Notes under the pieces: generated by a model
The model's input: only the letters and a program-made list of their open reading frames with translations
Told to the model about the DNA's origin: nothing
Databases searched by the model: none
Position numbers and translations under genes: made by a program
Shown: positions 6,418-64,000 of the stretch, piece by piece
Position numbering within the stretch: position 1 is the stretch's first letter
Layout of the letters: every line of letters begins with the position of its first letter
NCBI GenBank assembly: GCA_965372535.1
Contig: CBDVCR010000001.1
Span: forward strand, 11,290 to 75,289
Direction of reading: 5' to 3'
Source: an uncultured bacterium
Lineage (GTDB): Bacteria; Nitrospirota; Thermodesulfovibrionia; Thermodesulfovibrionales; JdFR-86
DNA: 64,000 nt

Positions 6418-6447
6418 CGGCCTTTTTCCATTCCCCTTTTGGCATAG

Positions 6448-34727: not shown

Positions 34728-34830
34728 ATGATGAGTGTGATTTGTATCACGTTTTTTTTTATGGTTTTCCTTTAATTTATTAATATAGCAGATTTAATCT
34801 GCTCTGAATGCAAAGTGCAGAGGAGAAGAT

Positions 34831-45220: not shown

Positions 45221-45345
45221 AAAAGAGCCGCCGGAGAAATCCTCTCTGGCGGCCCGGCGGACATAGGATAGCGTTTGCTGACATCCTTTAGTCCCGTCGC
45301 TCTGCGTCCCCGGGTTTCCCCAGGTTTGCTCTGAGCAGAGAACCT
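45221..45345 (-). promoter_or_regulatory. GEMM-I (cyclic-dinucleotide) riboswitch-like leader with intrinsic terminator, upstream of the crp-like gene
   Basis: The RNA reads ..CAGAGCAAACC-UGGG-GAAA-CCCG-GGGACGCAGAGC..GGAC-UAAA-GGAU..AUCC-UAU-GUCC.., then GCCGCCAGAGA..UCUCCGGCGGC-UCUUUU. This matches the Vc2 core GGCAAACC..GAAA..GGGACGCAAAGC. Confidence 0.75.
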
Positions 45346-45388
45346 ATGCATTAATTATTAAATAATAATAAGAACAGACAGAAAAAAA

Positions 45389-45404
45389 TGTGATTCAAAT
45401 CACA
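45389..45404 (-). promoter_or_regulatory. CRP/FNR-type box TGTGATTCAAATCACA (perfect palindrome)
   Basis: TGTGA-N6-TCACA centred about 41 bp upstream of the predicted start of the riboswitch leader, with an AT-rich -10 region between them. Confidence 0.7.
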
Positions 45405-45467
45405 TTGCGGCAGAGGGTTAAGGGCATGCAAAAACCGCGGGCTTTTTGTTGTTTGCGGAAACGGGAA

Positions 45468-46583
45468 TCAGCGGGAAAGGTAGGTGCTTATTTCGGTCGA
45501 GTAGGCGCTTTCGTTGCCCTGTGTATCGTATGCCGTTACGGCGAAATAATAGTATAAGCCGGTCGGGAGGTTCCCGACGGTGTATTGCGTTACATTTGCC
45601 ACGTCAAACGATTCGGTATAGTTGCCGGTGGAAGTTCCGTAATAGAGCCTGTAGCCCGCGAGGTCATCAAGTGGAGCGCCCTCTTCGTTGGTCGTGGGCG
45701 CATCCCAGAGAAGGGTTACCGGGCGGTGGGTTTGCAAAGGACTCGTTGCGGTACAAGCCTGGATGCCTGCGGTTGATTCGTTGCCTTCCGTATCATATGA
45801 GGTAACGGTATAGCAGTATGCTGTTGCGGGGAACAACCCCGTATCGCTGTAGACGGTGGAAGTAGAGGTTCCTGTTTCAACGCCGTCTCTGTAAACCCTG
45901 TAGCCGGCGACTCCGGAACCGTCTCCGTCCGTGGAAGGATTCCACGAGAGGTCAATCCGGCTTGAGGAAACAACTTTTGTTATCAGTCCCGTTACGGCCT
46001 CCGGAGGGGTGATGTCCAACCCGGAGCCTATTGGTTCGGTGGCAACGGGGTCTGGTTCGGAGATAACGGGGGCCGGCTCGGAGCCTATTGGTTCGGTGGG
46101 AACGGGGTCTGGTTCGGCGGGAACGGGGTCTGGCTCGGCGGGAACGGGGTCTGGCTCGGCGGGAACGGGGGTCATCATTATATTAATTATGGATTCGGTT
46201 TTTTTCTCCACGTCCACGATACCGGCATAAGGCTCATATCCGTCACCGGTTGCGGTAATGGTTATGCCTTTCCCTTTTACTATATTCTTGATAGTGTATT
46301 CTCCGTTGCCGGCCGTAATGTCCATTGCTTCGCCTATCCGGACCATGACCGCTGAAAGAGCCGTCCCGTCAACATCGGTTACAATGCCGGTGACGCTGCC
46401 GAGGACCCCATAGGCATTTCCTGTCCCATTATATAGCGAACCCTCCGCGAGTCCTCCAGGGGCGTCCTTCGCAATATTTTCGGCAAAGCCGTTTCCCGCG
46501 GCATATCCGGTTATGGACAAAACGGCCACGAAAAAGACAAGAAGATGTGGGGCGCCGTGTTTCACTGAAAATGTTTTCATCAA
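45468..46583 (-). CDS. secreted surface protein: carboxypeptidase-regulatory-like domain, Pro-rich repeat linker, two FN3 domains
   Basis: Signal peptide; GIVTDVDGTALSAVMVRIG.. domain; PVPAEPD x3 linker; two FN3-like modules (..LSWNPSTD.., ..LLWDAPTTNEEG..). Confidence 0.75.
   Translation of the reverse strand: MMKTFSVKHGAPHLLVFFVAVLSITGYAAGNGFAENIAKDAPGGLAEGSLYNGTGNAYGVLGSVTGIVTDVDGTALSAVMVRIGEAMDITAGNGEYTIKNIVKGKGITITATGDGYEPYAGIVDVEKKTESIINIMMTPVPAEPDPVPAEPDPVPAEPDPVPTEPIGSEPAPVISEPDPVATEPIGSGLDITPPEAVTGLITKVVSSSRIDLSWNPSTDGDGSGVAGYRVYRDGVETGTSTSTVYSDTGLFPATAYCYTVTSYDTEGNESTAGIQACTATSPLQTHRPVTLLWDAPTTNEEGAPLDDLAGYRLYYGTSTGNYTESFDVANVTQYTVGNLPTGLYYYFAVTAYDTQGNESAYSTEISTYLSR
46024..46173. 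repeat. in-frame tandem 21-bp repeats (about 4 copies plus diverged copies)
   Basis: Units ggytcggygggaacggggtct lie at 46090, 46111, 46132 and 46153. They encode PVPAEPD on the minus strand. Confidence 0.85.
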
Positions 46584-46668
46584 ACCTTCATGATTCCATC
46601 GAAAGGCGCGGCTTTCGGCAAAGCATAAGCGGAATGTTTTATTATTTTCCGAAACAACGGTAAAAAGA

Positions 46669-46684
46669 TGTGATTTGAATCACG
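46669..46684 (-). promoter_or_regulatory. CRP/FNR-type box TGTGATTTGAATCACG
   Basis: One mismatch from the palindrome; centred about 93 bp upstream of the ATG at 46583. Confidence 0.6.
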
Positions 46685-46826
46685 CCTCTTTCTAACGGGA
46701 CCGTTGGCAGGCCGACATATGAATGCCCCGGAATCCCTGCTCACGGGGCCTTGGAAGGATTCAACGCCGGATGAGAACCTGACCGGTTGATAATAAATCT
46801 GTACTTCAAAGGGTGTTATGTGAATC

Positions 46827-46852
46827 GGGCGGACCCCTTCCGGGGTCCGCCC
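46827..46852 (-). terminator. strong GC hairpin downstream of the FN3/PKD gene
   Basis: gggcggacccc-ttcc-ggggtccgccc. No clear U-tract follows. Confidence 0.4.
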
Positions 46853-46876
46853 GTTGCGTGACCGGCCAAGAAGATA

Positions 46877-48745
46877 TTACCCGCGTGCCTTCTCGTGTCT
46901 GTTCCTTTTCCGGTGCGCTATCAGGAACATGACGATGCCCGCAAGGACAATAATGCCGCCTAAGGAGGCCCTGGGAAACTTTATTCCATAGACAATCGGC
47001 GCAAGCGCCCGCCTAGTGGCGACCCTCAGCGCTTCGTGTCTTGAGATAAAGTCCGCCGCCTGCGGAGACAGCCTGTAGTAGGCGGCCACGAACGCCCTGC
47101 CCGGAAGGCTGCCAAGCAGGTATTCGTCCCTGAATTTCCTGAGCACCACTACATCGGGAGCCAGGGAGCTTCCGTAAGCGGCGGTTGCTATGAAGCATGC
47201 ATACGGGGAGGGGATTGTCGAATCCATGGAACCGGGTGGAGTCACGTCGGTGCCTGTGCCTCCCTGGTCTTGTCCCGGGTCCGCTGAAACGGTAATAACC
47301 GTCTCGCCGCTTGCCGATGCTCCGCCGTCGTCCGTAAACCGGACTTTTGCCGTGAAGGTGCCGGGGGTCTGATAGGTATGAGAGACGGGGCTTGCGGCGG
47401 TCTGGGCGTCGAAAACTCCGTTTCCGTCAAAGTCCCACTCGTACAGGACTATCTTTCCGTCGGGGTCCGAGACCACGGTGGAAAAAACCACCGTTAACGG
47501 CGCTGTTCCCGCATTGGGCGAGGTTTTGACCGAGGAGACGACCGGAGGTTCGTTCAGCGCGGAGGTTGCCGTTATCGTCACCGGAGGCGATATGGTCGAG
47601 GCCCCGCCGTTGTCCGTGATTTTCAGGCGCACGTTGCAGGCGCCTTCGTTTGAATATATATGGGACGCGCTCGATACCGCGCCCGTGTTCTCATCGAATG
47701 TGCCGTCGCCGTCAAAGTCCCACTCGAAGGCGACGACGGCGCCGTCGGGGTCCGATGCCTGTGCCGTAAAGTCCACGAGGAGGGGGACGGTCCCGGTCGC
47801 GGGGGCTGCTGAAAAAGCGGTTATCACGGGGGAGAGGTTCGATGTCGTGAAAGAGTGTTCCGCCGACATGGCCTCGTTGCCCGCTGCGTCGGCGGACCTG
47901 ACCCTGAAGACGTAGGTGGTAAAGCTCGAAAGCCCCGTAATCTCCACGGAATGCATGGTGACCGGGTCGGAAACAAGTGGGGTGATGCTCCCGTAAGCTG
48001 AGGCAAGGCCGTGTTCGACCCTGGAGGACGAGGGCTCGTCGGTCGTCCAGGAGATAATCGCCGAAGAGTCTGTAATGCTTGCGGTCTGTACCGCGGTTAT
48101 TACCGGAGGCGTCGTATCCAGCGGGTCGGACGTGGTGAAGGTATGGGTTTCCGAGACTGCCGCGTTGCCTGCGGCGTCGGCGCTCAGTACCCGGTAGTAG
48201 TACTGTGTTGAAGGCGAAAGGCCGCTTACGCCCTGGGAGTGGGTGGTGACAGGCGAAGGGTCGAGGGCGGTGGAGCTTCCGAGGGCGAGGGTTGCGCCGT
48301 ATTCCACACGGGTGTCGGAAGCCTCGTCAGTGGTCCAGTTTATGGTCGCGCTCTCGACGGTAACGTCCCCGGCGTAGACCCCGGAAATCACCGGGGCGGA
48401 GGTATCCGCGGTTGCCGGGGTCATACTGGCCTCGTTTGAGTACGCGCTTTCATTGCCCGCCGAGTCGTAAGCACTGGTCGCGAAATAGTAGGTGAGGCCG
48501 TTTGTGAGGCCGGTGACCCGGTAGGTTGTCACTTTTCCAACGTCTATGCTCGACGAATAACCGCCGCTTGCGGCGCCGTAGTACACCCTGAAGCCCGCAA
48601 GGTCGCCCAGCGCCGTGCCGTCCTCGTTAGTTGTGGGCGCGTCCCAGGCAAGGGTGGCCTCGCCAGCGAACGCGGAGGCGACTAAAACAAAGGTCAAAAA
48701 GACAATCAAACAAACTGTTGCTGTACTTTTTCCGTTTCTTTTCAA
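46877..48745 (-). CDS. large secreted FN3/PKD-repeat surface protein with a C-terminal CFIATAAYGS-type sorting-like domain
   Basis: The TTG start at 48745 follows a GGGGAGGA RBS. A signal peptide is followed by FN3 modules and two PKD-like modules (..FDGDG[TV]FD..). The tail is ACFIATAAYGS..LRKFRDEYL.. plus a transmembrane helix and HRKRNRHEKARG. Confidence 0.8.
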   Translation of the reverse strand: MKRNGKSTATVCLIVFLTFVLVASAFAGEATLAWDAPTTNEDGTALGDLAGFRVYYGAASGGYSSSIDVGKVTTYRVTGLTNGLTYYFATSAYDSAGNESAYSNEASMTPATADTSAPVISGVYAGDVTVESATINWTTDEASDTRVEYGATLALGSSTALDPSPVTTHSQGVSGLSPSTQYYYRVLSADAAGNAAVSETHTFTTSDPLDTTPPVITAVQTASITDSSAIISWTTDEPSSSRVEHGLASAYGSITPLVSDPVTMHSVEITGLSSFTTYVFRVRSADAAGNEAMSAEHSFTTSNLSPVITAFSAAPATGTVPLLVDFTAQASDPDGAVVAFEWDFDGDGTFDENTGAVSSASHIYSNEGACNVRLKITDNGGASTISPPVTITATSALNEPPVVSSVKTSPNAGTAPLTVVFSTVVSDPDGKIVLYEWDFDGNGVFDAQTAASPVSHTYQTPGTFTAKVRFTDDGGASASGETVITVSADPGQDQGGTGTDVTPPGSMDSTIPSPYACFIATAAYGSSLAPDVVVLRKFRDEYLLGSLPGRAFVAAYYRLSPQAADFISRHEALRVATRRALAPIVYGIKFPRASLGGIIVLAGIVMFLIAHRKRNRHEKARG

Positions 48746-48764
48746 GATATCCTCCCCTTTCAAC

Positions 48765-48893
48765 AAAAAAAGCCGCCAGAGAAATATCTCTGGCGGCACG
48801 GCGGGCATGGGACAGCTTATCTCCGGGCCGTCCTTTAGCCCCGTTGCTCTGCGTCCCCGGGTTTCCCCGGGTTTGCTCTGAGCAGAGAAGAAC
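48765..48893 (-). promoter_or_regulatory. GEMM-I (cyclic-dinucleotide) riboswitch-like leader with intrinsic terminator, upstream of the FN3/PKD gene
   Basis: It has the same architecture as 45221-45345, with compensatory base-pair changes. The terminator GCCGCCAGAGA..UCUCUGGCGGC-U7 ends about 20 nt before the RBS. Confidence 0.8.
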
Positions 48894-48941
48894 CGTTGTT
48901 TTCCGTTCTGTGTTAATTTAAACGAACCGGATGGAAAAAAC

Positions 48942-48957
48942 TGTAATTCAAATCACA
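48942..48957 (-). promoter_or_regulatory. CRP/FNR-type box TGTAATTCAAATCACA
   Basis: One mismatch; centred about 41 bp upstream of the predicted leader start. Confidence 0.65.
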
Positions 48958-49038
48958 ATTTTATCTTGAGTCTAATAGAAGGGGAGTGGTATCGAGAACC
49001 ACGCGCAAGGAAGTGAAAGCGGGAAAAGGGGCGTTTCT

Positions 49039-51318
49039 TCAGGGAGGGGGCTGCCGGGATTTCAGGGCTTTTTCGAGGGCCTTGACGACCGAAGGGTCGT
49101 AGATTGTGCACGAGCCCTTTTTTATTTCCTGCAGTGCTTCTTTCTTTGTGAATTTTTTCCCGTACGGCCTTTCCCTCGTCATTGCCGAGAATGCGTCGAT
49201 AACGGAGATGGCCCGTGAAATGAGGGGTATTTCCTCCCCCCTCAGACCGTCCGGATAGCCCGAGCCGTCGTACCTTTCATGGTGGTGGAGTATGGCGTCC
49301 CTGGCTTTTTCGGAAAACTCAAAGTCGTCCAGCAGGGTTACGGTCGTGTACGGATGGACCCTTAGGGTGCGGGCCTCGGCGGGAGAGAGTTTGGTGCTCT
49401 TCTCAAGAATGCTTTGGTCGATAAACATAAGCCCGAGGTCGTATATCATGGAGACGTAAACCGCGAGGGCCTTTTCCCCCTCCTCGACTCCGAGGTCGTC
49501 CATGACGTCCGAGATAAGGTCAGGGAACAACTTCTTCTTTTTATGGTATCTCTTTTCGGCGTCAAGGAGGCCCTGGAAGGACGTGATGAACTGTTTGAAA
49601 TCATATTCCACGGGGCCGTCCATGGAGAACTTTTCGAAAAAATGCGAAACCCTTTCGACCACCTCGAGGGCGATATAAAGGTCGCGGACCGTGAAGGGGG
49701 ATGAGGTCCTCTTGTTGTTGAGGTTGAGCACCCCTATTGCCTTGTCCCGCAGCTTTATAGGCACTGAAATAAGGGATTTCGTGTTGTACCGCGGATTGTT
49801 CTTCCTTCCGAAACGCGGGTCGCTCTCTATGTCTTCTATGAGCAGTGGTCTGCCCTCGATGGCAACCCACCCGGAAATCCTGTCGCTGAACCGTATTCTC
49901 GTCCGCTTTATGACGTCTTCGGAAAGCCCCATGGCCCCCTTAATCGTAAGTTCCCCCGACAGGTCGTCGCTGAGCATGATGGAACAGACGTTGACGTCGA
50001 GCAGGTCCGAGATGAACTCGATGAACAGTTCCATGGCGGTGTTGACGACGGCCTCCCTTTTTTCCCTTTTTCCTTTTGGGATTGTCAGGGTGACGTGGAA
50101 TTTGTCGTTAATGTTTTGCGCTGTCATTTCCCACCTGTGAAACTCCGCCACCTTCCGGGCAAGGTAGAAGTTCAGGCCCTCCCGGGGATGGTCCGACTGG
50201 AAGATGTATCCTGTTGTGGCGAGGTAGGGCAGTATCGCCTCGGGCATCTTTCTGGGGACGACCAAATCCACGTCTATGAAATTGTTCTCGTGGATGCTCA
50301 GGTCAATTGCGTCTCCGGTCTCAAGGTGGTGGCTGAGGCCCTCCATGAGGTTCAGAAAGAACTGGGCGAGCCTGGTCTTGTCGGCAGCGATGTACGATAT
50401 GTCCTTTTTGATGTCCGTTTCGAGCCTCAGGTCCTTTTTCGCGAGCAAGGAGTTCAGCATCCTGGAGTTTACGAGCTCCTCTATGAGGTCGGCGAGGTTC
50501 ACAACCGTCTTTCTTACCGCCCTCGTTTCGTCGTCAAGCCTGAGGAAATCAAGCAGGTTTTCGACGATGGAGACAAGCTTCGTTGTCTCGTCGCCGATGA
50601 TGTCGCGATATTCCCTCTGGTCGCTCGGGGGCATGTCCCCGGTCTGCTGCAAATAGTATATGGCCCCGCTGATTGAATTGAGCGGCGTCCGGAGCTCATG
50701 AGAGACATGGGTTACGAATTCGGTTTTTACGACGTCGCTCTCGATGAGTTTCTTATTCATCTCCTCAAGCTCCGCGGCCTTCGCCTTGAGCTGTTTCATC
50801 AAAAACGCGTTTTCCAGGGCGATGGCCGCCTGGTTCGCTATGATCTTAACCAGGTCGAATTCGTCTTCCGTAAAAGCTTTCTCGTCCTTCTTGTCGTTGA
50901 TGTTGATGACGCCGAGCAGCCTGCTCTTGCTTATCAGCGGGCATGAGATGAACGATTTTGTCCTGAAACGCTCTCTTGTTTCCCCCGGGAACAGGTCGCT
51001 TTCCTCGATGTTTTCGACAAGGACGGGAACGCGGTTTTTCGCCACCATGCCGGCAATCCCCTTGCCTATCTCTGTTCTGCTGCTTCTGATTTGCGGGCCG
51101 CTAACGCCTCTTGAGACAAAGACGTACAGTTCGTCCCGCTCGCTGAGAAGCATCAGGGAGCCTTTTTCGGCGTTGGCGTAGTTCAGGGCGGACTCCAGCA
51201 TGAGGTTGGCGATGGCGCTTACGTTGTCCGTGGCGACTATGGCGCTCGTGGTTTCCTGAAGTATGCAGAACTTCTTCTCGAAAAGCTCCGGATTTTGCAT
51301 AAGGCAATTATAATTCAT
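49039..51318 (-). CDS. GAF - HisKA - degenerate HATPase - GAF - HD-GYP multidomain signalling protein (cyclic-dinucleotide phosphodiesterase candidate)
   Basis: H-box FVTHVSHELRTPLNSISG is present. The kinase ATP-lid region lacks the DxGxG and GxGxG boxes. The C-terminus has HHHERYDGSGYPDGL (HD-GYP). Confidence 0.8.
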   Translation of the reverse strand: MNYNCLMQNPELFEKKFCILQETTSAIVATDNVSAIANLMLESALNYANAEKGSLMLLSERDELYVFVSRGVSGPQIRSSRTEIGKGIAGMVAKNRVPVLVENIEESDLFPGETRERFRTKSFISCPLISKSRLLGVININDKKDEKAFTEDEFDLVKIIANQAAIALENAFLMKQLKAKAAELEEMNKKLIESDVVKTEFVTHVSHELRTPLNSISGAIYYLQQTGDMPPSDQREYRDIIGDETTKLVSIVENLLDFLRLDDETRAVRKTVVNLADLIEELVNSRMLNSLLAKKDLRLETDIKKDISYIAADKTRLAQFFLNLMEGLSHHLETGDAIDLSIHENNFIDVDLVVPRKMPEAILPYLATTGYIFQSDHPREGLNFYLARKVAEFHRWEMTAQNINDKFHVTLTIPKGKREKREAVVNTAMELFIEFISDLLDVNVCSIMLSDDLSGELTIKGAMGLSEDVIKRTRIRFSDRISGWVAIEGRPLLIEDIESDPRFGRKNNPRYNTKSLISVPIKLRDKAIGVLNLNNKRTSSPFTVRDLYIALEVVERVSHFFEKFSMDGPVEYDFKQFITSFQGLLDAEKRYHKKKKLFPDLISDVMDDLGVEEGEKALAVYVSMIYDLGLMFIDQSILEKSTKLSPAEARTLRVHPYTTVTLLDDFEFSEKARDAILHHHERYDGSGYPDGLRGEEIPLISRAISVIDAFSAMTRERPYGKKFTKKEALQEIKKGSCTIYDPSVVKALEKALKSRQPPP

Positions 51319-51809
51319 TTCGTACCACGATTTTTATATATTTATTGGGATCCAAGTAATAATTAAGCAATAATTATGCCTTTTGCGTACAACCTGTAAA
51401 AAAGAATTTTCTTTTTTTTCAAGCAGGTATGGACGGCAAGGAGGAGAGGGACGCGGCCCGCCTAATAAGTGTTAACCAGGCCGACTTTCAGTGTCGCATG
51501 TGTTTACAGCCTGGGTTCCGGAAGAGCCGGAAACATTTCGAAGGGGAGCCTTTCGAACGGACGCGTTCCAGGCTAACAACAACCCTCATGGTCTGACAGA
51601 CTCTTCATAACTGTATGCTTCTTTTTCCCTTTCAACCGGGTATGGGCATGAAACGGCACTTATAGGACAAGGGCGCGTCCCTCGATGCGGGCGCGTTGTG
51701 CGTACCGCTTCGAGTAAGTCTTCCCTTGTCGTTTAACGTCCCGTTTTATCGCGTGGACGCATTTCGGCGTGCTTGGAAAACCCCGCCTTTCGGGCCGGCA
51801 TGAGCGTTT

Positions 51810-51837
51810 GCTTTACCCCCATGCGAGGGGGTAAAGC
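51810..51837. repeat. perfect 11-bp-stem hairpin next to the IS110 remnant
   Basis: gctttaccccc-atgcga-gggggtaaagc. Confidence 0.6.
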
Positions 51838-51851
51838 AACTGTGATGGATG

Positions 51852-52790
<939 letters not shown>

Positions 52791-52851
52791 TTGTTCCGTA
52801 GGGGCTAAAGAGGCGCCTTGACCGGGGGGGCGATAAAATTTTATCCTTAGC

Positions 52852-54231
52852 GTGATGAAAAAACCGTGGGCAGGAAGGTTCAGCGAGGCGACGGCAAAGG
52901 CTGTTGAGTCGTTTACGGAGTCCGTCTCGTTTGACCGCAGGCTCTGGAAGTACGATATCGAGGGCAGCATCGCCCACGCCCGCATGTTGGGCAGACAGGG
53001 AATAGTCTCAAAAAGCGAGTCCGAAAAGATTGTGAGGGGCCTTGGGGAAATCGCCTCCTCCATGGAAAAGGGGGAGTTCGCCTTCAGCGAGGAACTCGAG
53101 GACGTACACATGAACATAGAGGCCGCTTTGGTGGAAAAAATCGGCCCCGCGGGCGGCAAGCTCCACACTGCGCGTAGCCGCAACGACCAGGTGGCCCTGG
53201 ACCTCAGGCTCTATTTAAGGGCAGAGACCGACGAAATACTCGGCCTTATCGGAAGCTTGCAGGCCGCCATGCTTTCGCTTGCGGAGAGGAACATCGGCCT
53301 GATAATGCCCGGCTACACCCATATGCAGAGGGCCCAGCCCGTGCTCCTGGCCCACCACCTCCTTGCATACGTGGAGATGCTCGAAAGGGACCGGGAGAGG
53401 CTTACGGACTGCCAAAAGAGGATAAACGTTCTTCCCCTGGGGGCCGGGGCGCTTGCGGGCACGAGCCTCCCCATCGACAGGAAATACGTGGCCGAGCTTC
53501 TGGGTTTCAGGGCCGTGGCGGCAAACAGCATCGACGCGGTCTCGGACAGGGACTTCGCCCTTGAGTTCGTCTTCGCGGCAAGCATGGTCATGGCGCATTT
53601 AAGCAGGCTTTCCGAGGAACTGGTACTCTGGGCCTCTGAGGAGTTTTCGTTCGTCGAACTCCCCGACGCCTTTGCCACCGGATCGAGCATCATGCCCCAG
53701 AAGAAAAACCCCGACGTGCCGGAGCTTGTGCGGGGCAAGGCCGGGAGGGTGTACGGCGACCTCGTGGCCCTTCTGACGATAATAAAGGGGCTTCCCCTGG
53801 CCTATAACCGGGACCTCCAGGAGGACAAGCCCGCGGTGTTCGATACCGTGGACACGGTGAAGGGGTGCCTCGCGGTGCTTGCCGGGATGCTGCCCCGGCT
53901 CGGGTTCAACGAAAAGAGGATGTATGAGGCGGCCTCCAGGGCCTACTCCACTGCCACGGACGTGGCGGAATACCTGGTGGGAAAGGGCATGCCCTTCAGA
54001 GAGGCCCACGAGATGACGGGCAGGATAGTGGCTTACTGCATCGAGAAGGGCAAGGGCCTCGAGGAGCTGAAAACCGGGGAGTTCAGGAAGTTCTCCGGCC
54101 TGTTTGAAAGCGACATCTCCTCCCGTCTGAGCGCCGAGGCCTCGGTGAAATCCAGGAGTTCCGAGGGCGGCACCTCGCCCAAAGAGGTGAAGCGCCGCCT
54201 CAGAAGGCTGGCTTCCCGGATACGTAAATGA
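52852..54231 (+). CDS. argH: argininosuccinate lyase
   Basis: 459 aa with the signature [12 protein letters not shown]. Confidence 0.95.
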
Positions 54232-55151
54232 AGCCCGGGCCGAGGCTCCTCTGTTTAGTTGTTCTTTCATCACTCGTTGTCTCATGCGGAAAGAAAGCCC
54301 CGCCGAGGTGGATAGAGCCTGTGCCGCCCCCCGCGCCTTCCGCCCTGCGTGCCGTGGTCAGGGAGGACGCCGTCGTACTCAGGTGGGATTACCCTGAAGG
54401 AAGGGTAAAAGAGGGTTTCTTGGTTATGAGGGCCGCTCCGGGTGCGGAATTCGAGGAAATAGCCGTTGTGAAGGAGCAGGCGTATATGGACAGGGATTTC
54501 CTTGCGGGCGTTGCCTATGCATACAGTGTGGCGGCCCTGGGGAGGAGGGGGATGAAAAGCGGAAGCTCCAACCGGGTTGAGGCATCCCCCCCTTCGGGTG
54601 TTGCGCCTCCCTCCGGCCTTTCCTTCTCGATTCACGAAAACGTACTGGACCTCTCCTGGGAGCGCCCCTCGGGGGACGGCATGTTTAACATATACAAGAG
54701 TGCCGGGCAGGATGCCTATCCCATTGAGCCTGTAAATTCCGAACCTCTTGCCGGGGCTTCTTTCAGAGACATCCTGTCCCCGGAAGCCGCTGTCTACTAT
54801 GCTGTAAGGGCGGTCGAGCACGGCGCGTCCGAGGGAGTGACGAAGGAAAGCGCCCCAGCAGAGCTCCGGGTAGGGCCGGAGGACTATATCCCCTCCGCCC
54901 CCGGCGGCCTTGGGGCCGCGGTCGCGGACGGCAAGGTGGTGCTTTACTGGGACGAAAGCCCCGAGACGTGGGTGAGGGGCTACAGGGTCTACCGGGCGGC
55001 GGACGGCGGGGAGTTTGTGGATATTGGGGAATCGCGGACCCCGGCGTTCAAGGACCGGGAGCCCTTCAAGGGGAAAATGCGTTACCGGGTAAGCGCACTC
55101 GGGCCTGTCGGCGAAAGCGCCCTTTCCGGGGCAATAACGGTGTCCCCATAA
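54228..55151 (+). CDS. lipoprotein with FN3-like repeats
   Basis: Lipobox LVVSC; three ..LRWDYP../..LSWERP../..LYWDESP.. modules. Confidence 0.6.
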
Positions 55152-55308
55152 ATCCCTTTTCCCTTAACCGGCCGCCTGTATGAAGCATTGCTTTATATGA
55201 CAATTATGCGCTTCCTGAAGTGGGAGCATCTGTTGCTTGTAATGCCGGCGCATCTAACGCACAATGCGGATACAGGCTCCCGGCGATGTGATATAATCTG
55301 GTCACTGA

Positions 55309-56991
<1,683 letters not shown>

Positions 56992-57073
56992 GCCGCGTCA
57001 TCCCTTTGCCTGTGTGTTGAGTTCGCCCCCGTTTTTTTAGTCCGCCGGAAACGGCCTGTTTATAGGGCCGGGG

Positions 57074-57101
57074 TGGACATTTCCTTCCGCTTGTCTATAA
57101 T
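57074..57101 (+). promoter_or_regulatory. sigma-70-type promoter
   Basis: TGGACA, a 16-bp spacer, then TATAAT, about 30 bp upstream of the next CDS. Confidence 0.5.
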
Positions 57102-57131
57102 TAAAACTATGGCGCGCGTCTCAGGAGGGCC

Positions 57132-58193
57132 TTGGCCGTGAGAATCGCGGAACTTATCCTGCGGAGAGGAAGAGGCCCTTTCGCTTTGTCTCTGCTGCTT
57201 TCGCTCCCCATTGTCTGCCTTTTTACCCTTCTCCTTGCCGTCCTCCATATCTGGGAGGACGGCACGAGGCGGCGCAACTTCGAGATGCAGCTCAGGGAGT
57301 CGGCGAGGGCCCATTTCGAGCAGGTGGTGCTTACCGGGCTGTGGAACGCGCAGCACGGGGGCGTGTATGTAATGCTTGCCGAAGCAGGTTCACGCTCAAG
57401 CATGAGGGTCTCCCCGGAGGACACGGTAAATATCGGCGGCAAGCTGTACACAAAGCTCAACCCGGCGTATATCACCAGGCAGTTGTCCGAGATGGCAGCG
57501 GATAAAGGGTCTTTTATCAGGTTCCGTATATCGAGCCTTAACCCCGCTAACCCTTCCAACAGGCCCGGCAAGTGGGAGGCCCGGATGCTTCGCGCATTCG
57601 AAAACGGCGAGACGGAGGGGTACGGGATAATCGAGCAGGAGGGGTTGGAGTATTTCAGGTATATGTCCAGGCTGGTGGCAACCGAGGGATGCCTTGGCTG
57701 CCACTCGGAGCAGGGCCTGAAAGCCGGGGACATCATCGGCGGCGTAAGCGTAATCATCCCCGCGGGCCTGAACAGGGCGCTTCAGAGCGACATGAGAAGA
57801 CGGAGCATAATTGTCTTCAGCGTTATATGGGGCGCTACCGCCCTGTTAATCCTGGGCATTACATGGGTCTTGGCAAGGAGGCTCAGCCGGGGGGTCAAGA
57901 GCGAGGTGGAAGGCGAAAAACTCAAGAGCGCCGTAAGCATGGCAGGTGCGGCGGCCCACGAGCTCAGGCAGCCGCTGTCCATCATAATGGGGTTTTCCGA
58001 GCTTCTTAAGGACAAGGCGACAAACGGGGAGAACACCGACAGGGAGACCGAAATCATCATAAGCCAGTGCCGACGCATGAACGAAATCATCTCAAGGATG
58101 CTCAACGTCACCTCTTACAGGACTAAGTCCTACGGCGGCTATACCGAGATATTCGACTTCGGCCTGGAACCTGAAGAATCCTCCCGGAAATAA
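57132..58193 (+). CDS. DUF3365 (haem-binding, CxxCH) sensor domain fused to a HisKA-type dimerisation/phosphoacceptor segment, with no ATPase domain
   Basis: It has ..NPANPSNRPGKWE.., ..EGCLGCHSEQG..GGVSVIIP, a transmembrane helix and H-box AAHELRQPLSII. The protein ends about 70 aa after the H-box. The start is TTG 57132 or GTG 57138. Confidence 0.7.
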   Translation: MAVRIAELILRRGRGPFALSLLLSLPIVCLFTLLLAVLHIWEDGTRRRNFEMQLRESARAHFEQVVLTGLWNAQHGGVYVMLAEAGSRSSMRVSPEDTVNIGGKLYTKLNPAYITRQLSEMAADKGSFIRFRISSLNPANPSNRPGKWEARMLRAFENGETEGYGIIEQEGLEYFRYMSRLVATEGCLGCHSEQGLKAGDIIGGVSVIIPAGLNRALQSDMRRRSIIVFSVIWGATALLILGITWVLARRLSRGVKSEVEGEKLKSAVSMAGAAAHELRQPLSIIMGFSELLKDKATNGENTDRETEIIISQCRRMNEIISRMLNVTSYRTKSYGGYTEIFDFGLEPEESSRK

Positions 58194-58758
58194 CCCGCTG
58201 TAGTCGGTCACACAGTTTGGAATTATTGGCCATTTGATCTGAGATTTATTAAGAAAATAAGCGGGATTTGCCGGGAATAGTAAAGAATCGGCGGGATTTT
58301 CAAAAGTTATTTGACCAGTTAGGCATTCCGGTTATCGGGGAATATTTCTTATGGCAAAATCCTCCTTCTCTGAGCCTTGAACACCTGACAAAAAAATCGC
58401 GCTTTTGAGACTTTTTCGAGGAAAGCTCACCCTTTCCCGCTGATTCCGCAAAGACCGGCACGGGATAGGGCTGAACCTGGCCGAAAACCTCAGGGTCGAG
58501 TTCCGCTCCTGAATTGAAGGAGTAGTCCTTGCGGGTAAGCTGAAGAAGAGCATCGTCCATTAGTACGGTATGCCACATTGTCCGATTTTTGTGTGAAATG
58601 GCGCACCTCAATTACTTCGGGTATGCGATATCACACTAAATCAGCCTGATTTTCCGGTTGTCCCTTGCCGGGGAATCTCAATAAAAAAAATCATTTCCCG
58701 CTCAAACCCGCATGGATACTATTTTAGATAGTTTTGCATATTTAATTTGCCACCAAAC

Positions 58759-58774
58759 TGGCACGCAACTTGTA
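58759..58774 (+). promoter_or_regulatory. possible sigma-54 promoter (TGGCAC-gcaac-TTGT)
   Basis: The -24 element is perfect, but -12 is TGT rather than TGC. It ends about 12 nt before the riboswitch-like leader. Confidence 0.35.
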
Positions 58775-58786
58775 TGGAAGAGAGAG

Positions 58787-58918
58787 CCACCGAAAAGAGC
58801 AAAGCCGGGGTAACCGGGCGGCGCAAAGCCACCTGCCCTGAGTTAATCGAAGGGTAGAGGGGGTTGCCGAAGTGGAAAGAGCAGCATCTTCGGCCCGTCT
58901 TTTCGGAGGCGGGTTTTT
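58787..58918 (+). promoter_or_regulatory. GEMM-I (cyclic-dinucleotide) riboswitch-like leader with terminator, upstream of the transglutaminase-core gene
   Basis: The RNA reads CCACCGAAAAGAGCAAAGCCGGG-GUAA-CCGGGC-GGCGCAAAGCCACCUGCCCU..AGGGUAGAGGGGGUUGCCGAAGUGG. It aligns along its length with Vc2 (..GGGACGCAAAGCC..GGUAGCGGGGUUACCGAUGG). The hairpin CCCGUCU..GGAGGCGGG-U5 follows. Confidence 0.8.
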
Positions 58919-58945
58919 ATGTTTACAACATTCGGGGGAGGTACG

Positions 58946-61930
58946 ATGGACTTCAGGCATACGCTTATCGCGAGGGCCGTATCATTTATAGTCCTGCTCC
59001 TGTTTTCGTGGACGTTCGCGGGCGTTTACGACGTGGCCTATGCTGTCAAGAACAGCGGCGAGTTATTCAACAAAGACAACCGTGTTCGCACCATAAGGGG
59101 AAAGACCGCCGCCGGGAAGTTCGAGGAGGCCGTCGAGCGCATGGAGGAGGCCCTTGCCGACCCCTCGCTTGAGATGAAGGACAAGAAGGGCCGGCTGGCG
59201 AAGGTCAGGTCAGAGATGGAGAGGCTTGCGGAAAAACTCAGGGAGGAGTTCGGGGCCACGGAAAAAAAGCTCAGGGAAGACGGGCTTCCCCCGGAGATAC
59301 TTGACAGGCATCATGATTTTGTAAAGCGCTTCGAGGAGAACCTGGACACGGTGCTCGAGCACATCGAGTCCATTGACCGGGCGGCAACGCATTCTGATTT
59401 CGACAAGCGGGTGGGAAAAGCTCTTGAGCATGTCAAAAAGGCAAAGCCGCCGAAGAAGCACGTTCCCCTCGACCCCGACAACCTCCCCCACCGTGCCGCC
59501 GAGCCCACCAGGAAGGAGCCCAGGCTCAAGAAAGAGGAGTTCATAAACGGCATGAGGGCACAGGCCGAGCCCATCCTTGTTGCCTCCACGGGTTCCCTTG
59601 CCGGGCTTCTGGATGAGAACTCACAATATATGCAGCTTGCCCTGGCCGTCGGGCTGCCCGGGCAGGCCGACCTTGCCGAGACAGTGGAGATAAAATTCAC
59701 TCCCGCCATACAGACCAGGGCCGAGGAGCTTGGCGGCAGGCCCCTTGCCATCTACGAGTGGGTGAGGAATAACGTGGAGTTCGTGCCCACCTGGGGCTCC
59801 ATACAGGGTGCGGACTACTGCCTTCAGACCATGCAGTGCAATGCCTTCGACACGGCAAGCCTGCTTATCGCCCTTCTCAGGGCCTCGGGCATCCCGGCCC
59901 GGTACGCCATGGGCACGGTGGAGATGCCCATGGAAAAAGTCATGAACTGGGCCGGAGGGTTTACTGATGCCAACGCGGCCCTTAACTTCATGGCCTCGGG
60001 CGGCATACCCGCAGGGGGGCTCGTCGAGGGCGGGCGGATAAAGGTCGTCCAGATGGAGCACGTCTGGGTGGAGGCATGGATTGATTACATCCCCTCGCGC
60101 GGGGCGCGGCACAGGCAGGGCGGAGGCGATACTTGGATACCCCTGGACGCGAGCTTCAAGCAGTATGCCTATACGGACGGCATGGACGTTAGCTCGGCGG
60201 TTCCATTTGACGCCGAGGGGTTTGCCGACGCCCTCATATCCTCTGCAATCATAAACGAGACGGACGGCTACGTCACCGGGGTGGACTCTGCCTACATCCA
60301 GCAGGCGATGAGCGAATATCAGGCTCAGGTCAGCGATTATATCACTACTAATCATCCTGACGCCACGGTGGGCGACGTTCTTGGAAAGAATGAAATCATT
60401 GTCCAGAAATTTCCGTATCTTCTGGGTACGCTTCCTTACAGGCTCAGGGTAACGGGGGCGCGGTACAGCAGTATGCCCGACAGCTACCGGCATAAGATCG
60501 AGTTCTACCTCGCCGCCGAGAGCATAATTTCCGGGTCAATGCCCATAAGCATCACCAGGAGCCTGCCCGAGCTTGCGGGGAGGAAGATAACGCTCAGCTA
60601 CTCTCCGGCCACTCCAGAGGATGAGGCGGTTATCAACTCCTATCTGCCAGAGCCCCATCCTGACGGCACGCCCATAGACCCCTCTGAGTTTCCGTCCTCG
60701 CTTCCGGCGTATCTGATAAACTTAAAGCCGGAACTGAGAATGGACGGCGAGGTGGCAGCCACGGGCGGGGCGATAGGCATGGGCCATATACAGAAACTCG
60801 ACATGACGTTTACATCTCCGAGCCATGGAAGCGGCGTGGTGGCAAACAAGGTCAATGCGGGCGAGTACTTCGGCATCGCGCTGGATTTGGCCGGGATATC
60901 CGGGCCGCAGATGGAGGCCGTCAAGGCGAAACTTGAGAGCACCAAGGCGAAGCTCGAGTCGGGCAACTACGAGGGGCTTACCAAGGACGACGTCTTGGGC
61001 GACCTGCTCTATGCCACGGCGCTTTCTTACTTCGCGGAGCTCGACGCAATGGACCACGTGCAGGCAAGGACAATGGGGGTGGTTGACATAAGGCTCCCGT
61101 CCGAGAATATTTTCAAGACGGCGCTGGAAGTGGAGCATTCCTTCGGCGTTCCCGTATCCGTTAGCGCGGGCGGGCTTGCGATGGACGCAGACAGGATGTT
61201 GAGCCTTTCGAAGGCCAGGGACGGAGACTATGAGAAGAAGAGGCAGTTCATGCTGGCCTCCGGGATGAACTCATCGGCCCTGGAGCACAGCGTGCCGGAG
61301 CAGTTGTTCTCGACGCCCGAAAACCCGGTCGAGGGGATAAGCGCGGTCAAGGCCCTCCAGATAGCCAACGGGCAGGGCATACCGATATATACGGTCACCA
61401 GGGACAACATCGCCGCGGTGTTTCCGCAGCTACAACTTGACCCCCGGGTGATTAATGATATTTTAAACGCCGTGAATGCGGGCATGGAGGTTACGGTCTC
61501 GAAGACGGACATAACCTACAACGGCTGGATCGGCTGCGGCTACCTCGTCATAAACCCCCTGACGGGTTCCGGCGGGTATATGATTAGCGGGGGTGCGAGC
61601 GGGGCAGTTTTGCTGGTGCTTACCCTTATTTTTAGTTTATTAGCGATAGTGACCGCCGCACCTACTGGCGGAATAGGAGCAGTTTTCTTTGGAATGCATG
61701 CTATTGCAACATTGGAAGGCGCAATCGCTGCATTGTATGGGAAGGATAAATTAAATGAATTTATGAATTGTTTAGTTAAAAGCGTTGCCAAGATTATTGT
61801 TAAAGATAAGACTGCTCACTATTTAAAACCGTATTTAATACCTGCAGTAGCTGTACTGTTACCTTACATCCTATCATTTACTGCTGGTTGGTCCATAGGT
61901 AAATGTATCAGTGACACATTTTACAATTAA
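58946..61930 (+). CDS. large secreted/membrane protein with a transglutaminase-like Cys-His-Asp core, a conserved pre-C-terminal block and a variable hydrophobic C-terminal cassette
   Basis: The ATG at 58946 follows a GGGGGAGG RBS, and there is a signal/anchor sequence. The core is QCNAFDTASLLIALLRASGIPARY, EHVWVEAW and WIPLDAS. The last ~105 aa are AT-rich at DNA level and transmembrane-like. Confidence 0.8.
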   Translation: MDFRHTLIARAVSFIVLLLFSWTFAGVYDVAYAVKNSGELFNKDNRVRTIRGKTAAGKFEEAVERMEEALADPSLEMKDKKGRLAKVRSEMERLAEKLREEFGATEKKLREDGLPPEILDRHHDFVKRFEENLDTVLEHIESIDRAATHSDFDKRVGKALEHVKKAKPPKKHVPLDPDNLPHRAAEPTRKEPRLKKEEFINGMRAQAEPILVASTGSLAGLLDENSQYMQLALAVGLPGQADLAETVEIKFTPAIQTRAEELGGRPLAIYEWVRNNVEFVPTWGSIQGADYCLQTMQCNAFDTASLLIALLRASGIPARYAMGTVEMPMEKVMNWAGGFTDANAALNFMASGGIPAGGLVEGGRIKVVQMEHVWVEAWIDYIPSRGARHRQGGGDTWIPLDASFKQYAYTDGMDVSSAVPFDAEGFADALISSAIINETDGYVTGVDSAYIQQAMSEYQAQVSDYITTNHPDATVGDVLGKNEIIVQKFPYLLGTLPYRLRVTGARYSSMPDSYRHKIEFYLAAESIISGSMPISITRSLPELAGRKITLSYSPATPEDEAVINSYLPEPHPDGTPIDPSEFPSSLPAYLINLKPELRMDGEVAATGGAIGMGHIQKLDMTFTSPSHGSGVVANKVNAGEYFGIALDLAGISGPQMEAVKAKLESTKAKLESGNYEGLTKDDVLGDLLYATALSYFAELDAMDHVQARTMGVVDIRLPSENIFKTALEVEHSFGVPVSVSAGGLAMDADRMLSLSKARDGDYEKKRQFMLASGMNSSALEHSVPEQLFSTPENPVEGISAVKALQIANGQGIPIYTVTRDNIAAVFPQLQLDPRVINDILNAVNAGMEVTVSKTDITYNGWIGCGYLVINPLTGSGGYMISGGASGAVLLVLTLIFSLLAIVTAAPTGGIGAVFFGMHAIATLEGAIAALYGKDKLNEFMNCLVKSVAKIIVKDKTAHYLKPYLIPAVAVLLPYILSFTAGWSIGKCISDTFYN
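61181..61611 (+). repeat. conserved ~430-bp block, copy 1 (inside the large gene)
   Basis: It aligns colinearly (constant offset 1186 bp, no indels seen) with 62367-62797 at high identity. It encodes MDADRMLSLSKARDGDYEKKRQFML...GSGGYMISGGASGAV. Confidence 0.85.
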
Positions 61931-61945
61931 CCGAGGAAGATAATT

Positions 61946-62275
61946 ATGCTGAACTTAATAAGAGAAAATCCCAATCTAATTTTAGGATTAATAATATTAA
62001 CTGCTCTGATTATTGCACTGCTTATTTCGATAAAGAGAGGTGACTATCATCACTCCTACAAGAAATCACTTATTATTTTTGGAGTTGGAATAATTGATTT
62101 AATTGTAGGTATTATCTTTAACTCGATTGAAGTCGGTCGATGGGATAAGGAAACAATTACATCATACTTATTCTTAAAAACCGATAATCTTATTTTAGTG
62201 ATTTTTGGTTATGTCTTTCTTGTAACTGGAGTCTTCCAATTCTTGGTTACAATTGTTAATCGCTTTAGGGCTTAA
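61946..62275 (+). CDS. small 3-TM membrane protein (candidate cognate/immunity partner of C-terminal cassette 1)
   Basis: 109 aa, GAGGAAG RBS, AT-rich, three hydrophobic helices. Confidence 0.55.
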   Translation: MLNLIRENPNLILGLIILTALIIALLISIKRGDYHHSYKKSLIIFGVGIIDLIVGIIFNSIEVGRWDKETITSYLFLKTDNLILVIFGYVFLVTGVFQFLVTIVNRFRA

Positions 62276-62313
62276 AGCTTAAGCAGCACGTTCTTTGACA
62301 ACATGGGAGGCAA

Positions 62314-62348
62314 GGCGGGCACGAAGGCTCAGAGTGTTCGTGCCCGCC
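62314..62348 (+). other. perfect 12-bp GC-rich hairpin at the junction before the orphan module
   Basis: ggcgggcacgaa-ggctcagagtg-ttcgtgcccgcc. No U-tract follows. Confidence 0.6.
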
Positions 62349-62366
62349 TTCAAAAGGAAGCGAAGA

Positions 62367-62797
62367 ATGGACATAGACCACGACATGGTGATGGTGAAGG
62401 CGCGTGACGGAGACGACGAGAAGAAGAGGCAATTCATGCTGGCCTCCGGGATGAACGGCTCGGCCCTGGAGCACTCGGTGCCGGAGCAGTTGTTCAGGAC
62501 ACCCGAAAACCCGGTCGAGGGCATATCGGCGGTCAAGGCGCTCCAGATAGCCAACGAGCAGGGCATACCGATATATACTATCGACCGGTCAAATATAAGC
62601 ACGGTCCTTCCTCAGCTTCAGGTTGATGCCCAGGTAATAAATGACATAAGGAATGCCGTGAATGCGGGGAAAGAAGTGACTGTCTCGAAGACGGACATCA
62701 GCTACAACGGCTGGACAGGCTGCGGCTACATAGTCATAAACCCCGTCACCGGCTCCGGCGGGTATATGATTAGCGGGGGAATGGCGGGGGCGGTTGT
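62367..62797 (+). repeat. conserved ~430-bp block, copy 2
   Basis: See 61181-61611. Confidence 0.85.
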
Positions 62798-63170
62798 TGA
62801 TATAGACGATATTAAGGTTATATGGTTTGGTATTGCCACAAACTTAATATTGTGGGGACCTATCATTATGGGTGTAGGAATGGCTGTCCCTATTGCTGGG
62901 CTTGCTTTGACTGGTGCAATAATCACAGGGCTTGGAGCAGGTATGGTGCTGAGCCAGATTCTGCCTGAAGAAGTTAAAGACTTCATTTTGGAAGCACTAT
63001 CAGATACCAGCGTCATGATTGGAATTCTAACTACCATGTCAATCTTGGGAATATCAACATGTTTATTTGCTGTTGTTGCTCTTCTTCTGCTTTACAATCT
63101 ATATGTACAAACACAAGCCAGTATAAATTATAGATTTCCATATTATTCGACAAAAAATACGTATGCATAA
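62367..63170 (+). CDS. orphan C-terminal module: a copy of the conserved block fused to a second, unrelated hydrophobic glycine-zipper-rich cassette
   Basis: MDIDHDMVMVKARDGDDEKKRQFML...GSGGYMISGGMAGAV is followed by a divergent ~125 aa (..GVGMAVPIAGLALTGAIITGLGAG..). An AAGGAAG lies 6 nt before the ATG. Confidence 0.65.
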   Translation: MDIDHDMVMVKARDGDDEKKRQFMLASGMNGSALEHSVPEQLFRTPENPVEGISAVKALQIANEQGIPIYTIDRSNISTVLPQLQVDAQVINDIRNAVNAGKEVTVSKTDISYNGWTGCGYIVINPVTGSGGYMISGGMAGAVVDIDDIKVIWFGIATNLILWGPIIMGVGMAVPIAGLALTGAIITGLGAGMVLSQILPEEVKDFILEALSDTSVMIGILTTMSILGISTCLFAVVALLLLYNLYVQTQASINYRFPYYSTKNTYA

Positions 63171-63186
63171 TAATTATGGATGAGAA

Positions 63187-63591
63187 ATGATAGAAAAAGT
63201 TATTTCATTAATTGTTATACCTGCAGCCTTGATTTATATAGCAGTTATTGCTAGGCAAAGATTGTATGCTTACATAGGAATAGTTTTTCTATTTCTGATG
63301 ATTTTGATGGCTTTTCCTGATACTGCTGTATTTTTCTCTCTCCATGAAAATTACTTTCCATGGGTGACAGAAAAAATGATATTTAATGCGATAACTACCA
63401 TAACTATAATTGTAGGGCTTATTTTAGCAATTCATTGTTATAAAGCAGAAGCAAAAGCTAAAAAAGAAGGCAATCCAATAATCTTAAAGAGCGATTTCAG
63501 GAAAATACTGGCTCCATCAAAAGGGAATATTACATTTTGGATTATTATCATTATTTATTACATCAGCACCAAGATATTTCTTGGCAATTAA
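63187..63591 (+). CDS. small 4-TM membrane protein (candidate cognate/immunity partner of C-terminal cassette 2)
   Basis: 134 aa, AT-rich, four hydrophobic helices. Confidence 0.5.
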   Translation: MIEKVISLIVIPAALIYIAVIARQRLYAYIGIVFLFLMILMAFPDTAVFFSLHENYFPWVTEKMIFNAITTITIIVGLILAIHCYKAEAKAKKEGNPIILKSDFRKILAPSKGNITFWIIIIIYYISTKIFLGN

Positions 63592-63632
63592 GGCTAAACA
63601 TATAAAGCAAAGGTTTTTACATATATAACAAA

Positions 63633-63751
63633 CCACCGAAAGGGCAAGGCCGGGGCGACCCGGCGGCGCAAAGCCACCTGTCCCATTAAGGATAGAGGGG
63701 CCGTCGAAGTGGGAAGAAACTTTGCCCACCCTTTCGGAGGTGGGCTTTTTT
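63633..63751 (+). promoter_or_regulatory. GEMM-I (cyclic-di-GMP type) riboswitch-like leader with terminator
   Basis: The RNA reads CCACCGAAAGGGCAAGGCCGGG-GCGA-CCCGGC-GGCGCAAAGCCACCUGUCC..GGAUAGAGGGGCCGUCGAAGUGG. The hairpin GCCCACCC-UUUC-GGAGGUGGGC-U6 follows. Confidence 0.8.
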
Positions 63752-63800: not shown

Positions 63801-64000
63801 ATGAAACAGGGGGGCATATTCATAACAGCGGTCATTACCTTAATCTTGATTTGCACGCCTGGCCCGGGCCATGCCCGGACGCCCGAGATAGAAAGCGGGC
63901 TCAATTACCTGGCCTCCACGCAGAACGCCGACGGCTCATGGGGCGCCGCCGCCTCCGCAACCGATTCCATGACCGCCACGGCCGAGGCGATAGGCGCTCA
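63801..64000 (+). CDS. secreted protein, N-terminal part (prenyltransferase/squalene-oxidase-type repeat beginning); the 3' end lies outside the window
   Basis: The ATG follows GGAGG, and there is a signal peptide. LNYLASTQNADGSWG resembles the terpenoid-cyclase/prenyltransferase repeat. Confidence 0.5.
   Translation, partial: MKQGGIFITAVITLILICTPGPGHARTPEIESGLNYLASTQNADGSWGAAASATDSMTATAEAIGA

Follow-up and report, generated by a model that had tools for sequence, protein, structure and literature searches.

We analyzed a 64-kb stretch (64,000 nucleotides; hereafter, the window) of contig CBDVCR010000001.1 from an uncultured bacterium (assembly GCA_965372535.1). The window contains four riboswitch aptamers of the GEMM-I family, which we will call A to D. 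We compared the window to Rfam 15 with cmscan, using the gathering thresholds, and we computed each aptamer's pocket bases and how its terminator overlaps or is compatible with it. All four matches were full-length matches to RF01051 (c-di-GMP-I/GEMM-I), with E-values of 4e-10 to 6e-7, and no other Rfam family was found. Aptamers A (45340..45245, 60.9 bits) and B (48887..48789, 63.7 bits) are on the minus strand, while C (58788..58871, 53.5 bits) and D (63633..63708, 50.8 bits) are on the plus strand. Because all four score above the family's gathering score of 35 bits, these are genuine aptamers, not chance matches. A sweep of all 121 sequences analyzed with a regular expression found no additional aptamers.

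Aptamer A precedes the gene for a Crp/Fnr-family regulator (44265..44963, minus strand, with cNMP_binding and HTH_Crp domains). Aptamer B precedes two genes on the same strand (45468..48745). The first encodes an FN3/PKD protein (46877-48745) which is secreted and has a C-terminal transmembrane helix and a basic tail (GGIIVLAGIVMFLIAHRKRNRHEKARG); this C terminus looks like a sorting signal, and the protein may be an exosortase substrate. The second encodes an FN3/CarboxypepD_reg protein (45468-46583). Aptamer C precedes plus-strand genes at 58946..63591, for a transglutaminase-like membrane protein (58946-61930) and three small membrane open reading frames (61946-62275, 62295-63170, and 63187-63591). 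Aptamer D precedes the start of a gene that runs off the window (63801..64000, plus strand) and encodes a signal peptide and then a prenyltransferase/TED-like repeat. Among its relatives, this is the N-terminus of a CARDB-rich surface protein of 2,500-3,600 amino acids.

The four aptamers fall into two structural pairs. In A (element 45245..45341, minus strand), the P1 helix is formed by UCUCUG (45341-45336) and CAGAGA (45248-45243). B (48789..48888, minus strand) is a paralogue of A: the two leaders are 72% identical over ~220 nucleotides, from promoter to terminator, with compensatory changes in P3 from A-U to G-C (GGAU/AUCC to GGAC/GUCC). Judging from this similarity, A and B are recent duplicates. 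In C (58787..58875, plus strand), CCAC-CG (58787-58792) pairs with CG-AA-GUGG (58868-58875) to form P1, and its paralogue D (63633..63712, plus strand) has the same design (63633-63638 with 63705-63712). All four have a GNRA tetraloop (GAAA in A and B, GUAA in C, GCGA in D). A and B have the tetraloop receptor (CUAA/UAUG in A), but C and D do not. The GC...GC pairs (G21-C46/C22-G45) and the intercalating A47 that follows GACGC are found in all four.

In the c-di-GMP-I riboswitch Vc2 from Vibrio cholerae, G20 recognizes one guanine of cyclic di-GMP (c-di-GMP) by its Hoogsteen edge and C92 pairs with the other guanine; in the Geobacter aptamer Gs1761, A14 replaces G20 (PMC6140456). An initial annotation of the window, which named this contact of G20 with one guanine, proposed that three of the aptamers have A at the equivalent position and that the fourth has G. 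Our structure-aware alignment to the covariance model gives the same bases at exactly the coordinates proposed: A in A (45330), B (48877), and C (58798), and G in D (63643). This is model position 11, an unpaired purine directly 5' of the pairs G12-C37 and C13-G36, and it is aligned with the maximal posterior ('*'). The equivalent of C92 is model position 83, which is also C75 of the Geobacter aptamers (Gs1761 and Gmet_0970/pilM). It is C in A (45249), B (48793), and C (58867), and U in D (63704). The 3' end of aptamer D reads ...GGGGCC-G-U-C-GAAGUGG, and its register at position 92 is anchored on both sides, by the preceding 3' strand of P3 and the following 3' strand of P1. Along with A20 and C92, aptamers A, B, and C keep A47 and A18.

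The Vc2 numbering given in the initial annotation held. In what we take to be the Vc2 sequence, the residues G14, G21, C46, and A47 agree with those named in PMC9049102, and what we take to be the Gs1761 sequence fits 11 of the 11 contacts in PMC7288161 (G8, A11, A12, U13, A14, C15, A41, A42, G74, C75, and C76). MAFFT places A14 of Gs1761 and G20 of this presumed Vc2 sequence in the same column as the A or G of the window's aptamers, and the statements in PMC6140456 agree. We considered a P1 pairing of G19 with C93 and dropped it: the contacts in Gs1761 give G8-C76 as the top pair (G14-C93 in Vc2), with a J1/2 of 5 nucleotides. In the subfamily of C and D, the first C of the P1 3' strand pairs with the P1-closing G, as in the G8-C76 pair of Gs1761.

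These bases place A, B, and C in the known class of A20/C92 (GEMM-Ib-type) pockets. A at the position of G20/A14 together with C at the position of C92/C75 is the pocket of the GEMM-Ib subclass, which binds 3'3'-cGAMP (cyclic GMP-AMP), so the G20-to-A change was rightly taken as its signature. This combination is not found in D. Although D has G at position 20, as had been noted, it does not have the canonical c-di-GMP pocket: it is a G20/U92 variant. The canonical G20/C92 pocket is thus found in none of the four aptamers, and the suggestion that the window mixes both specificities, which presupposed a canonical D, loses its basis. Because A and B are recent duplicates, there are two independent A20 lineages, not three. 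C and D share a scaffold and a P1 design, and they differ reciprocally at both of the ligand-reading bases.

The G20/U92 pocket recurs in two related loci, L082 (2743-2822) and L087 (4837-4917), in both cases upstream of transglutaminase-like genes. Across the three examples (including the window, at 63704), this GEMM-I variant goes with genes for transglutaminase-like or giant surface proteins, on Nitrospirota-like contigs. Comparing the transglutaminase-like protein to metagenomes gave 28 loci, of which only one (L087) has a GEMM-I aptamer. Another related locus, L116, has an aptamer (13022-13100) with the canonical G20, A47, and C92. The best match of this aptamer is RF03167 (c-di-GMP-I-GGC, 64.6 bits), even though it has A, not G, at position 47, probably because the RF03167 model includes P1. 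Family names from clan competition therefore need to be checked against the actual bases.

The terminators of leaders A and B overlap their aptamers. The terminator of A (45221..45253, minus strand) is GCCGCCAGAGA/UCUCCGGCGGC followed by UCUUUU. That of B (48765..48797, minus strand) is a perfect 11-bp stem, GCCGCCAGAGA/UCUCUGGCGGC, followed by U7. In both, the 3' arm has the pattern UCUC(C/U)GGCGGC before the U-tract, and the 5' arm consists of the last 9 nucleotides of the aptamer, with the C92 equivalent among them, plus the P1 3' strand CAGAGA. These are strong terminators (11 bp and U7 in B). When we enforced P1 (UCUCUG/CAGAGA) by constrained folding, no terminator could form. Since the terminator and the ligand-bound aptamer are mutually exclusive, A and B are predicted to be ON switches. 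The ligand would lock P1 and hold C92, which are the bases of the terminator's 5' arm, and the bound aptamers would let RNA polymerase read into the Crp-family regulator (A) and the two FN3/PKD surface proteins (B). A and B have the same layout as the ON switches of pilM and pgcA; in the cGAMP-responsive pilM riboswitch of Geobacter metallireducens, the terminator sequesters C75 (PMC9262584). Between the terminator of A and the start of crp is an untranslated spacer of ~250 nucleotides (44964-45220, minus strand), which is conserved in the related locus L117 (120-375).

In C and D, the terminator is located downstream of P1, and enforcing P1 did not prevent it from forming. The expression platform of C is at 58888..58920 (plus strand), with a terminator at 58892-58915 and a U-tract, and that of D is at 63719..63751 (plus strand), with a terminator at 63724-63745 and U6. 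In the ligand-free minimum-energy fold of C, 58790-58798 (CCGAAAAGA, which includes A20) pairs with 58898-58906 (UCUUUUCGG), a second helix joins 58866-58872 with 58888-58894 (P1 3' strand), and there is no terminator. Similarly, in the ligand-free fold of D, 63636-63644 (CCGAAAGGG, which includes G20) pairs with 63729-63737 (CCCUUUCGG). In both the unconstrained folds and the folds of prefixes, this 9-bp long-range helix joins the P1 5' strand and J1/2 to the loop and 3' arm of the terminator. Position 20 is inside this antiterminator helix, where it pairs with U58898 in C and with C63730 in D. C and D have different bases in two of the nine pairs, one of them being position 20, and both differences are compensated (A-U to G-C), which supports the helix. 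The compensated pair at position 20 also means that each copy's base is matched by its own expression platform.

Because the ligand-free fold excludes the terminator while a formed P1 permits it, C and D appear to work as OFF switches. When no ligand is bound, J1/2 and the 5' strand of P1, position 20 among them, would pair with the terminator and transcription would continue; with ligand, that strand would be held in the aptamer and the terminator would form. The ligand would then shut off the transglutaminase-like operon (C) and the giant surface protein (D). The initial annotation overlooked that the predicted switch logic is opposite, with A and B as ON switches and C and D as OFF switches.

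Directly upstream of leader B is a gene for a GAF-HisKA-GAF-HD-GYP protein (49039..51318, minus strand), which is a candidate cyclic-dinucleotide phosphodiesterase. It has an HHERYDGSGYP motif, with RPYG in place of the guanine-reading Rxx(K/R). HD-GYP variants with RxxQ/N are cGAMP-specific phosphodiesterases (10.1101/600031), and the lost K/R of this neighbor is circumstantial evidence for the reading of cGAMP. The orthologous protein beside crp in L112/L113, from a relative without a riboswitch upstream of crp, has RPYR. In L112, the nearest relative (5374-8699), the HD-GYP gene is directly upstream of crp, while in the window (44265-51318), the two FN3 genes and the second riboswitch leader lie between them. 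This difference in arrangement suggests a local duplication or insertion.

The recognition helix of the Crp-like protein is R-E-T-A-T-R (R-E-x-x-x-R), as in CRP from E. coli. Instead of the Arg-Ser/Thr phosphate clamp of the cAMP-binding CRPs, this protein has V-P-A-T; because the clamp is missing, its effector may not be cAMP. At leader A, there is a perfect TGTGA-N6-TCACA box (45389..45404), ~41 nucleotides upstream of the likely start of the leader, which overlaps the -35 region of a promoter whose -10 hexamer (TATTAT) ends at 45365. A second CRP-type box, with one mismatch, is upstream of leader B (48942..48957), and a third is between the two FN3 genes (46669-46684). The other boxes in the window are at 34736-34751 and 29719-29734. 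In total, the window has five TGTGA-N6-TCACA boxes with at most one mismatch, versus 0.7 expected, and three of them flank riboswitch-controlled genes. We infer a likely circuit in which initiation needs the Crp-like factor, elongation needs the dinucleotide, and crp is positively autoregulated.

Elsewhere in the window is a complete exopolysaccharide locus of the PEP-CTERM/exosortase type (11866-44282). The locus encodes a TPR protein, Poly_export, GNVR, a ParA-like kinase, an AAA_22 ATPase, a beta-barrel, a sugar transferase, Wzy, glycosyltransferases, a flippase, the exosortase EpsH (39774-40694), and a GAF histidine kinase with a sigma-54 response regulator. Between 28 and 40 kb, the GC content drops to 36-47%, which suggests an acquired glycosyltransferase cassette. 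Between the HD-GYP gene and argH is a fragment of an IS110/IS116/IS902-family transposase (51908-52552, minus strand).

No species representative in GTDB has an ArgH with more than 65% identity to the one here, and the best matches are from Nitrospirae metagenome-assembled genomes. The closest relatives of Crp (75% and 66% identical) and several relatives of the transglutaminase-like protein are named Nitrospirota or Thermodesulfovibrionales. No GEMM-I aptamer was found near argH in the six best related loci that we checked. A module of a transglutaminase and a giant protein is also present in Geotalea daltonii and in a JGI homologue, and we did not find a riboswitch in either. We had considered that the regulon might be conserved with Geobacter and rejected this, since the module of Geotalea daltonii has no riboswitch. 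An orthologue of Crp that is 94% identical (L117) keeps the riboswitch, with A20.

The best explanation for these observations is that all four elements are functional cyclic-dinucleotide riboswitches of the GEMM-I family, predicted to act on transcription termination. With their GEMM-Ib pocket, A, B, and C can very likely accommodate 3'3'-cGAMP as a ligand. In Gs1761, the A of cGAMP is paired to A14 and its G to C75, and all of the A20 aptamers that were tested bind cGAMP at nM affinity (PMC6140456). In Geobacter, position 20 sets the selectivity: the A20G change in Gmet_0970 flips it from cGAMP to c-di-GMP, and the riboswitch of pgcA is ~1200-fold selective for cGAMP (PMC6456294). Furthermore, the canonical G20/C92 pocket is missing from all three independent lineages in the window, and a regulon for c-di-GMP alone would be less expected to look like this. 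We give about an even chance to the proposal that the physiological signal of A, B, and C is cGAMP, sensed either selectively or by dual cGAMP/c-di-GMP sensors.

The initial annotation had put this more strongly, as cGAMP rather than c-di-GMP. The GEMM-Ib pocket of A, B, and C supports the first half of that claim, but not the second: A20 is necessary and not sufficient for selectivity, because Vc2 with G20A is bispecific (53 nM for c-di-GMP, 120 nM for cGAMP) and because Cbe 1-2, an aptamer with a natural A20, binds c-di-GMP better than cGAMP (30 nM versus 463 nM) (PMC6140456). Several other observations also weigh against cGAMP as the signal or against the switching that we propose. Beyond A20, no sequence determinant of selectivity is known (PMC6140456), and A and B have G at the equivalent of A48, which is a ligand contact in Gs1761 (PMC7288161). 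The host is Nitrospirota-like, not Geobacter or another deltaproteobacterium, while descriptions of the pathway from GacA through cGAMP to the riboswitch come from Geobacter, Myxobacteria, and other deltaproteobacteria. As a cGAMP synthase, we would have counted a Hypr GGDEF (Ser348 and GGDEF) or a DncV-type CD-NTase; motif and domain scans of the 64-kb window found no GGDEF, SMODS, or other cyclase, and the related loci L081-L120 likewise showed neither a GGDEF motif nor a cyclase domain, and hence no cGAMP synthase. The RxxG of the HD-GYP protein is an uncharacterised variant, and a lysine directly follows RPYG. Orthologues of Crp from the nearest relatives (66-75% identity) have no GEMM-I leader, and the conservation of A20 was seen in just one, very close relative (L117). 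Finally, the ON or OFF calls for A-D come from thermodynamic folding alone, and in A and B, folding of the terminator is favored over that of the aptamer by ~20 kcal/mol; the decision of the switch must therefore be kinetic, as in pilM.

The strongest alternative is that all four aptamers sense c-di-GMP and that no cGAMP is made. A20 (by means of a protonated adenine) and U92 (by means of a G.U wobble) would be tolerated, and the lower affinities would set different c-di-GMP thresholds for the ON and OFF genes. We consider this plausible, if somewhat doubtful. The affinities of Vc2 G20A and Cbe 1-2 for c-di-GMP fit this explanation, as do the host, which is outside the lineages with a demonstrated GacA pathway, and the failure to find a synthase within the window. 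A20 aptamers do read c-di-GMP with an adenine that is protonated, and the composition of P1 seems to tune their selectivity (PMC6140456). Similarly, Vc2 with C92U keeps a partial response to c-di-GMP in vivo (10.1101/617340). Also, the canonical G20/C92 aptamer of L116 is in the same structural subfamily and is upstream of an FN3-type gene, so c-di-GMP riboswitches do exist in this clade. Against it, each of the three independent lineages in the window departs from G20/C92. The reciprocal difference between C and D, at both contacts and with compensation in the platform, looks maintained and not like drift, and in Geobacter the same single base confers ~1000-fold selectivity for cGAMP.

That reciprocal difference, at exactly positions 20 and 92 of a pair of paralogues, is the main reason to consider another reading, in which the A20/C92 and G20/U92 pockets bind 3'3'-cGAMP in opposite orientations. 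In A20/C92, A20 would pair with the adenine and C92 with the guanine; in G20/U92, G20 would pair with the guanine and U92 with the adenine. The window would then hold one regulon with two ON and two OFF switches, which we consider unlikely; that the regulon would also be coupled to the Crp-type regulator and to the non-canonical HD-GYP protein, as this reading adds, is improbable to a similar degree. Besides the lack of any canonical pocket in the window, the recurrence of G20/U92 in L082 and L087 is consistent with opposite orientations. An engineered G20A/C92U double mutant binds cyclic di-AMP (c-di-AMP), so what one site reads can be changed, independently of the other, according to simple rules of pairing. 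But a natural G20/U92 sensor of cGAMP has no experimental precedent, U92 can also wobble with G (and Vc2 with C92U still answers to c-di-GMP), and there are only three G20/U92 sequences. To our knowledge, the Vc2 C92U Spinach sensor has not been reported as a cGAMP sensor; we did not use this as evidence. We think it very improbable that some of the copies are decaying duplicates with no regulatory role: A and B did arise by duplication, the closing pair of P3 is an A.C mismatch in A, B, and D, and orthologous crp loci lack the riboswitch, but the four scores exceed the gathering score by 16-29 bits, all four terminators are intact and placed to interact with the aptamer, and the differences between A and B and between C and D include compensatory changes.

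The closest known systems to A, B, and C, which we propose to be sensors of cGAMP, are the GEMM-Ib riboswitches of Geobacter (Gs1761/pgcA, PDB 4YAZ; Gmet_0970/pilM). They share the fold of the Rfam family and the A20/C92 pocket, and A and B also share the ON design, in which the terminator takes up the C92 equivalent along with the 3' strand of P1. As in Geobacter, there are several copies per genome, genes for extracellular or surface proteins are under transcriptional control, and a transcriptional regulator is among the targets. The Geobacter riboswitches differ in the host, in the base at A48 (which is G in A and B), and in the logic of C, which is predicted to be an OFF switch. Also, the targets in Geobacter are cytochromes and pili, whereas the targets in the window are a Crp regulator, FN3/PKD proteins, and an operon with a transglutaminase-like protein.

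Like Vc2, the window's aptamers have a three-helix junction (with the GNRA tetraloop and its receptor in A and B), and position 20 (Hoogsteen), A47 (intercalation), and position 92 (Watson-Crick) have the same roles. Unlike Vc2, none of the four has G20/C92, and the variants match engineered changes in Vc2: G20A, which is bispecific, and C92U, which weakens the binding of c-di-GMP. Cbe 1-2, from Clostridium beijerinckii, is another natural A20/C92 aptamer from outside the deltaproteobacteria, and its measured preference for c-di-GMP makes it a cautionary precedent. C and D resemble Cd1, a c-di-GMP OFF switch from Clostridioides difficile, in that the aptamer and the terminator coexist and an antiterminator forms without ligand. 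In Cd1, however, the competing helix uses the 3' strand of the aptamer only, while the main helix in C and D uses the P1 5' strand and J1/2. Families such as c-di-GMP-I-GGC (RF03167) and c-di-GMP-I-UAU, from the same clan (CL00126), are defined by altered ligand-contact nucleotides, which shows that GEMM-I variants with other pockets receive their own entries, but the window's copies match RF01051 best, and neither A20/C92 nor G20/U92 has its own Rfam family.

These four riboswitches add to the known GEMM-I class, and their main value is as test material, in the pair of C and D and in the pairing of ON with OFF switches. If all four sense c-di-GMP, then the finding is routine. If A, B, and C sense cGAMP, then riboswitch-based cGAMP signaling extends beyond Geobacter to a Nitrospirota-like lineage, and the signal would be linked to surface and adhesin genes beside a PEP-CTERM/exosortase polysaccharide locus. 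If the two pockets bind cGAMP in opposite orientations, there would be one cGAMP regulon in a lineage that is not known for riboswitch-based cGAMP signaling. The paralogues C and D are a natural test of what sets selectivity beyond position 20, which is an open question in the published work. And with ON and OFF switches of one family adjacent to each other, one messenger could toggle two sets of surface proteins.

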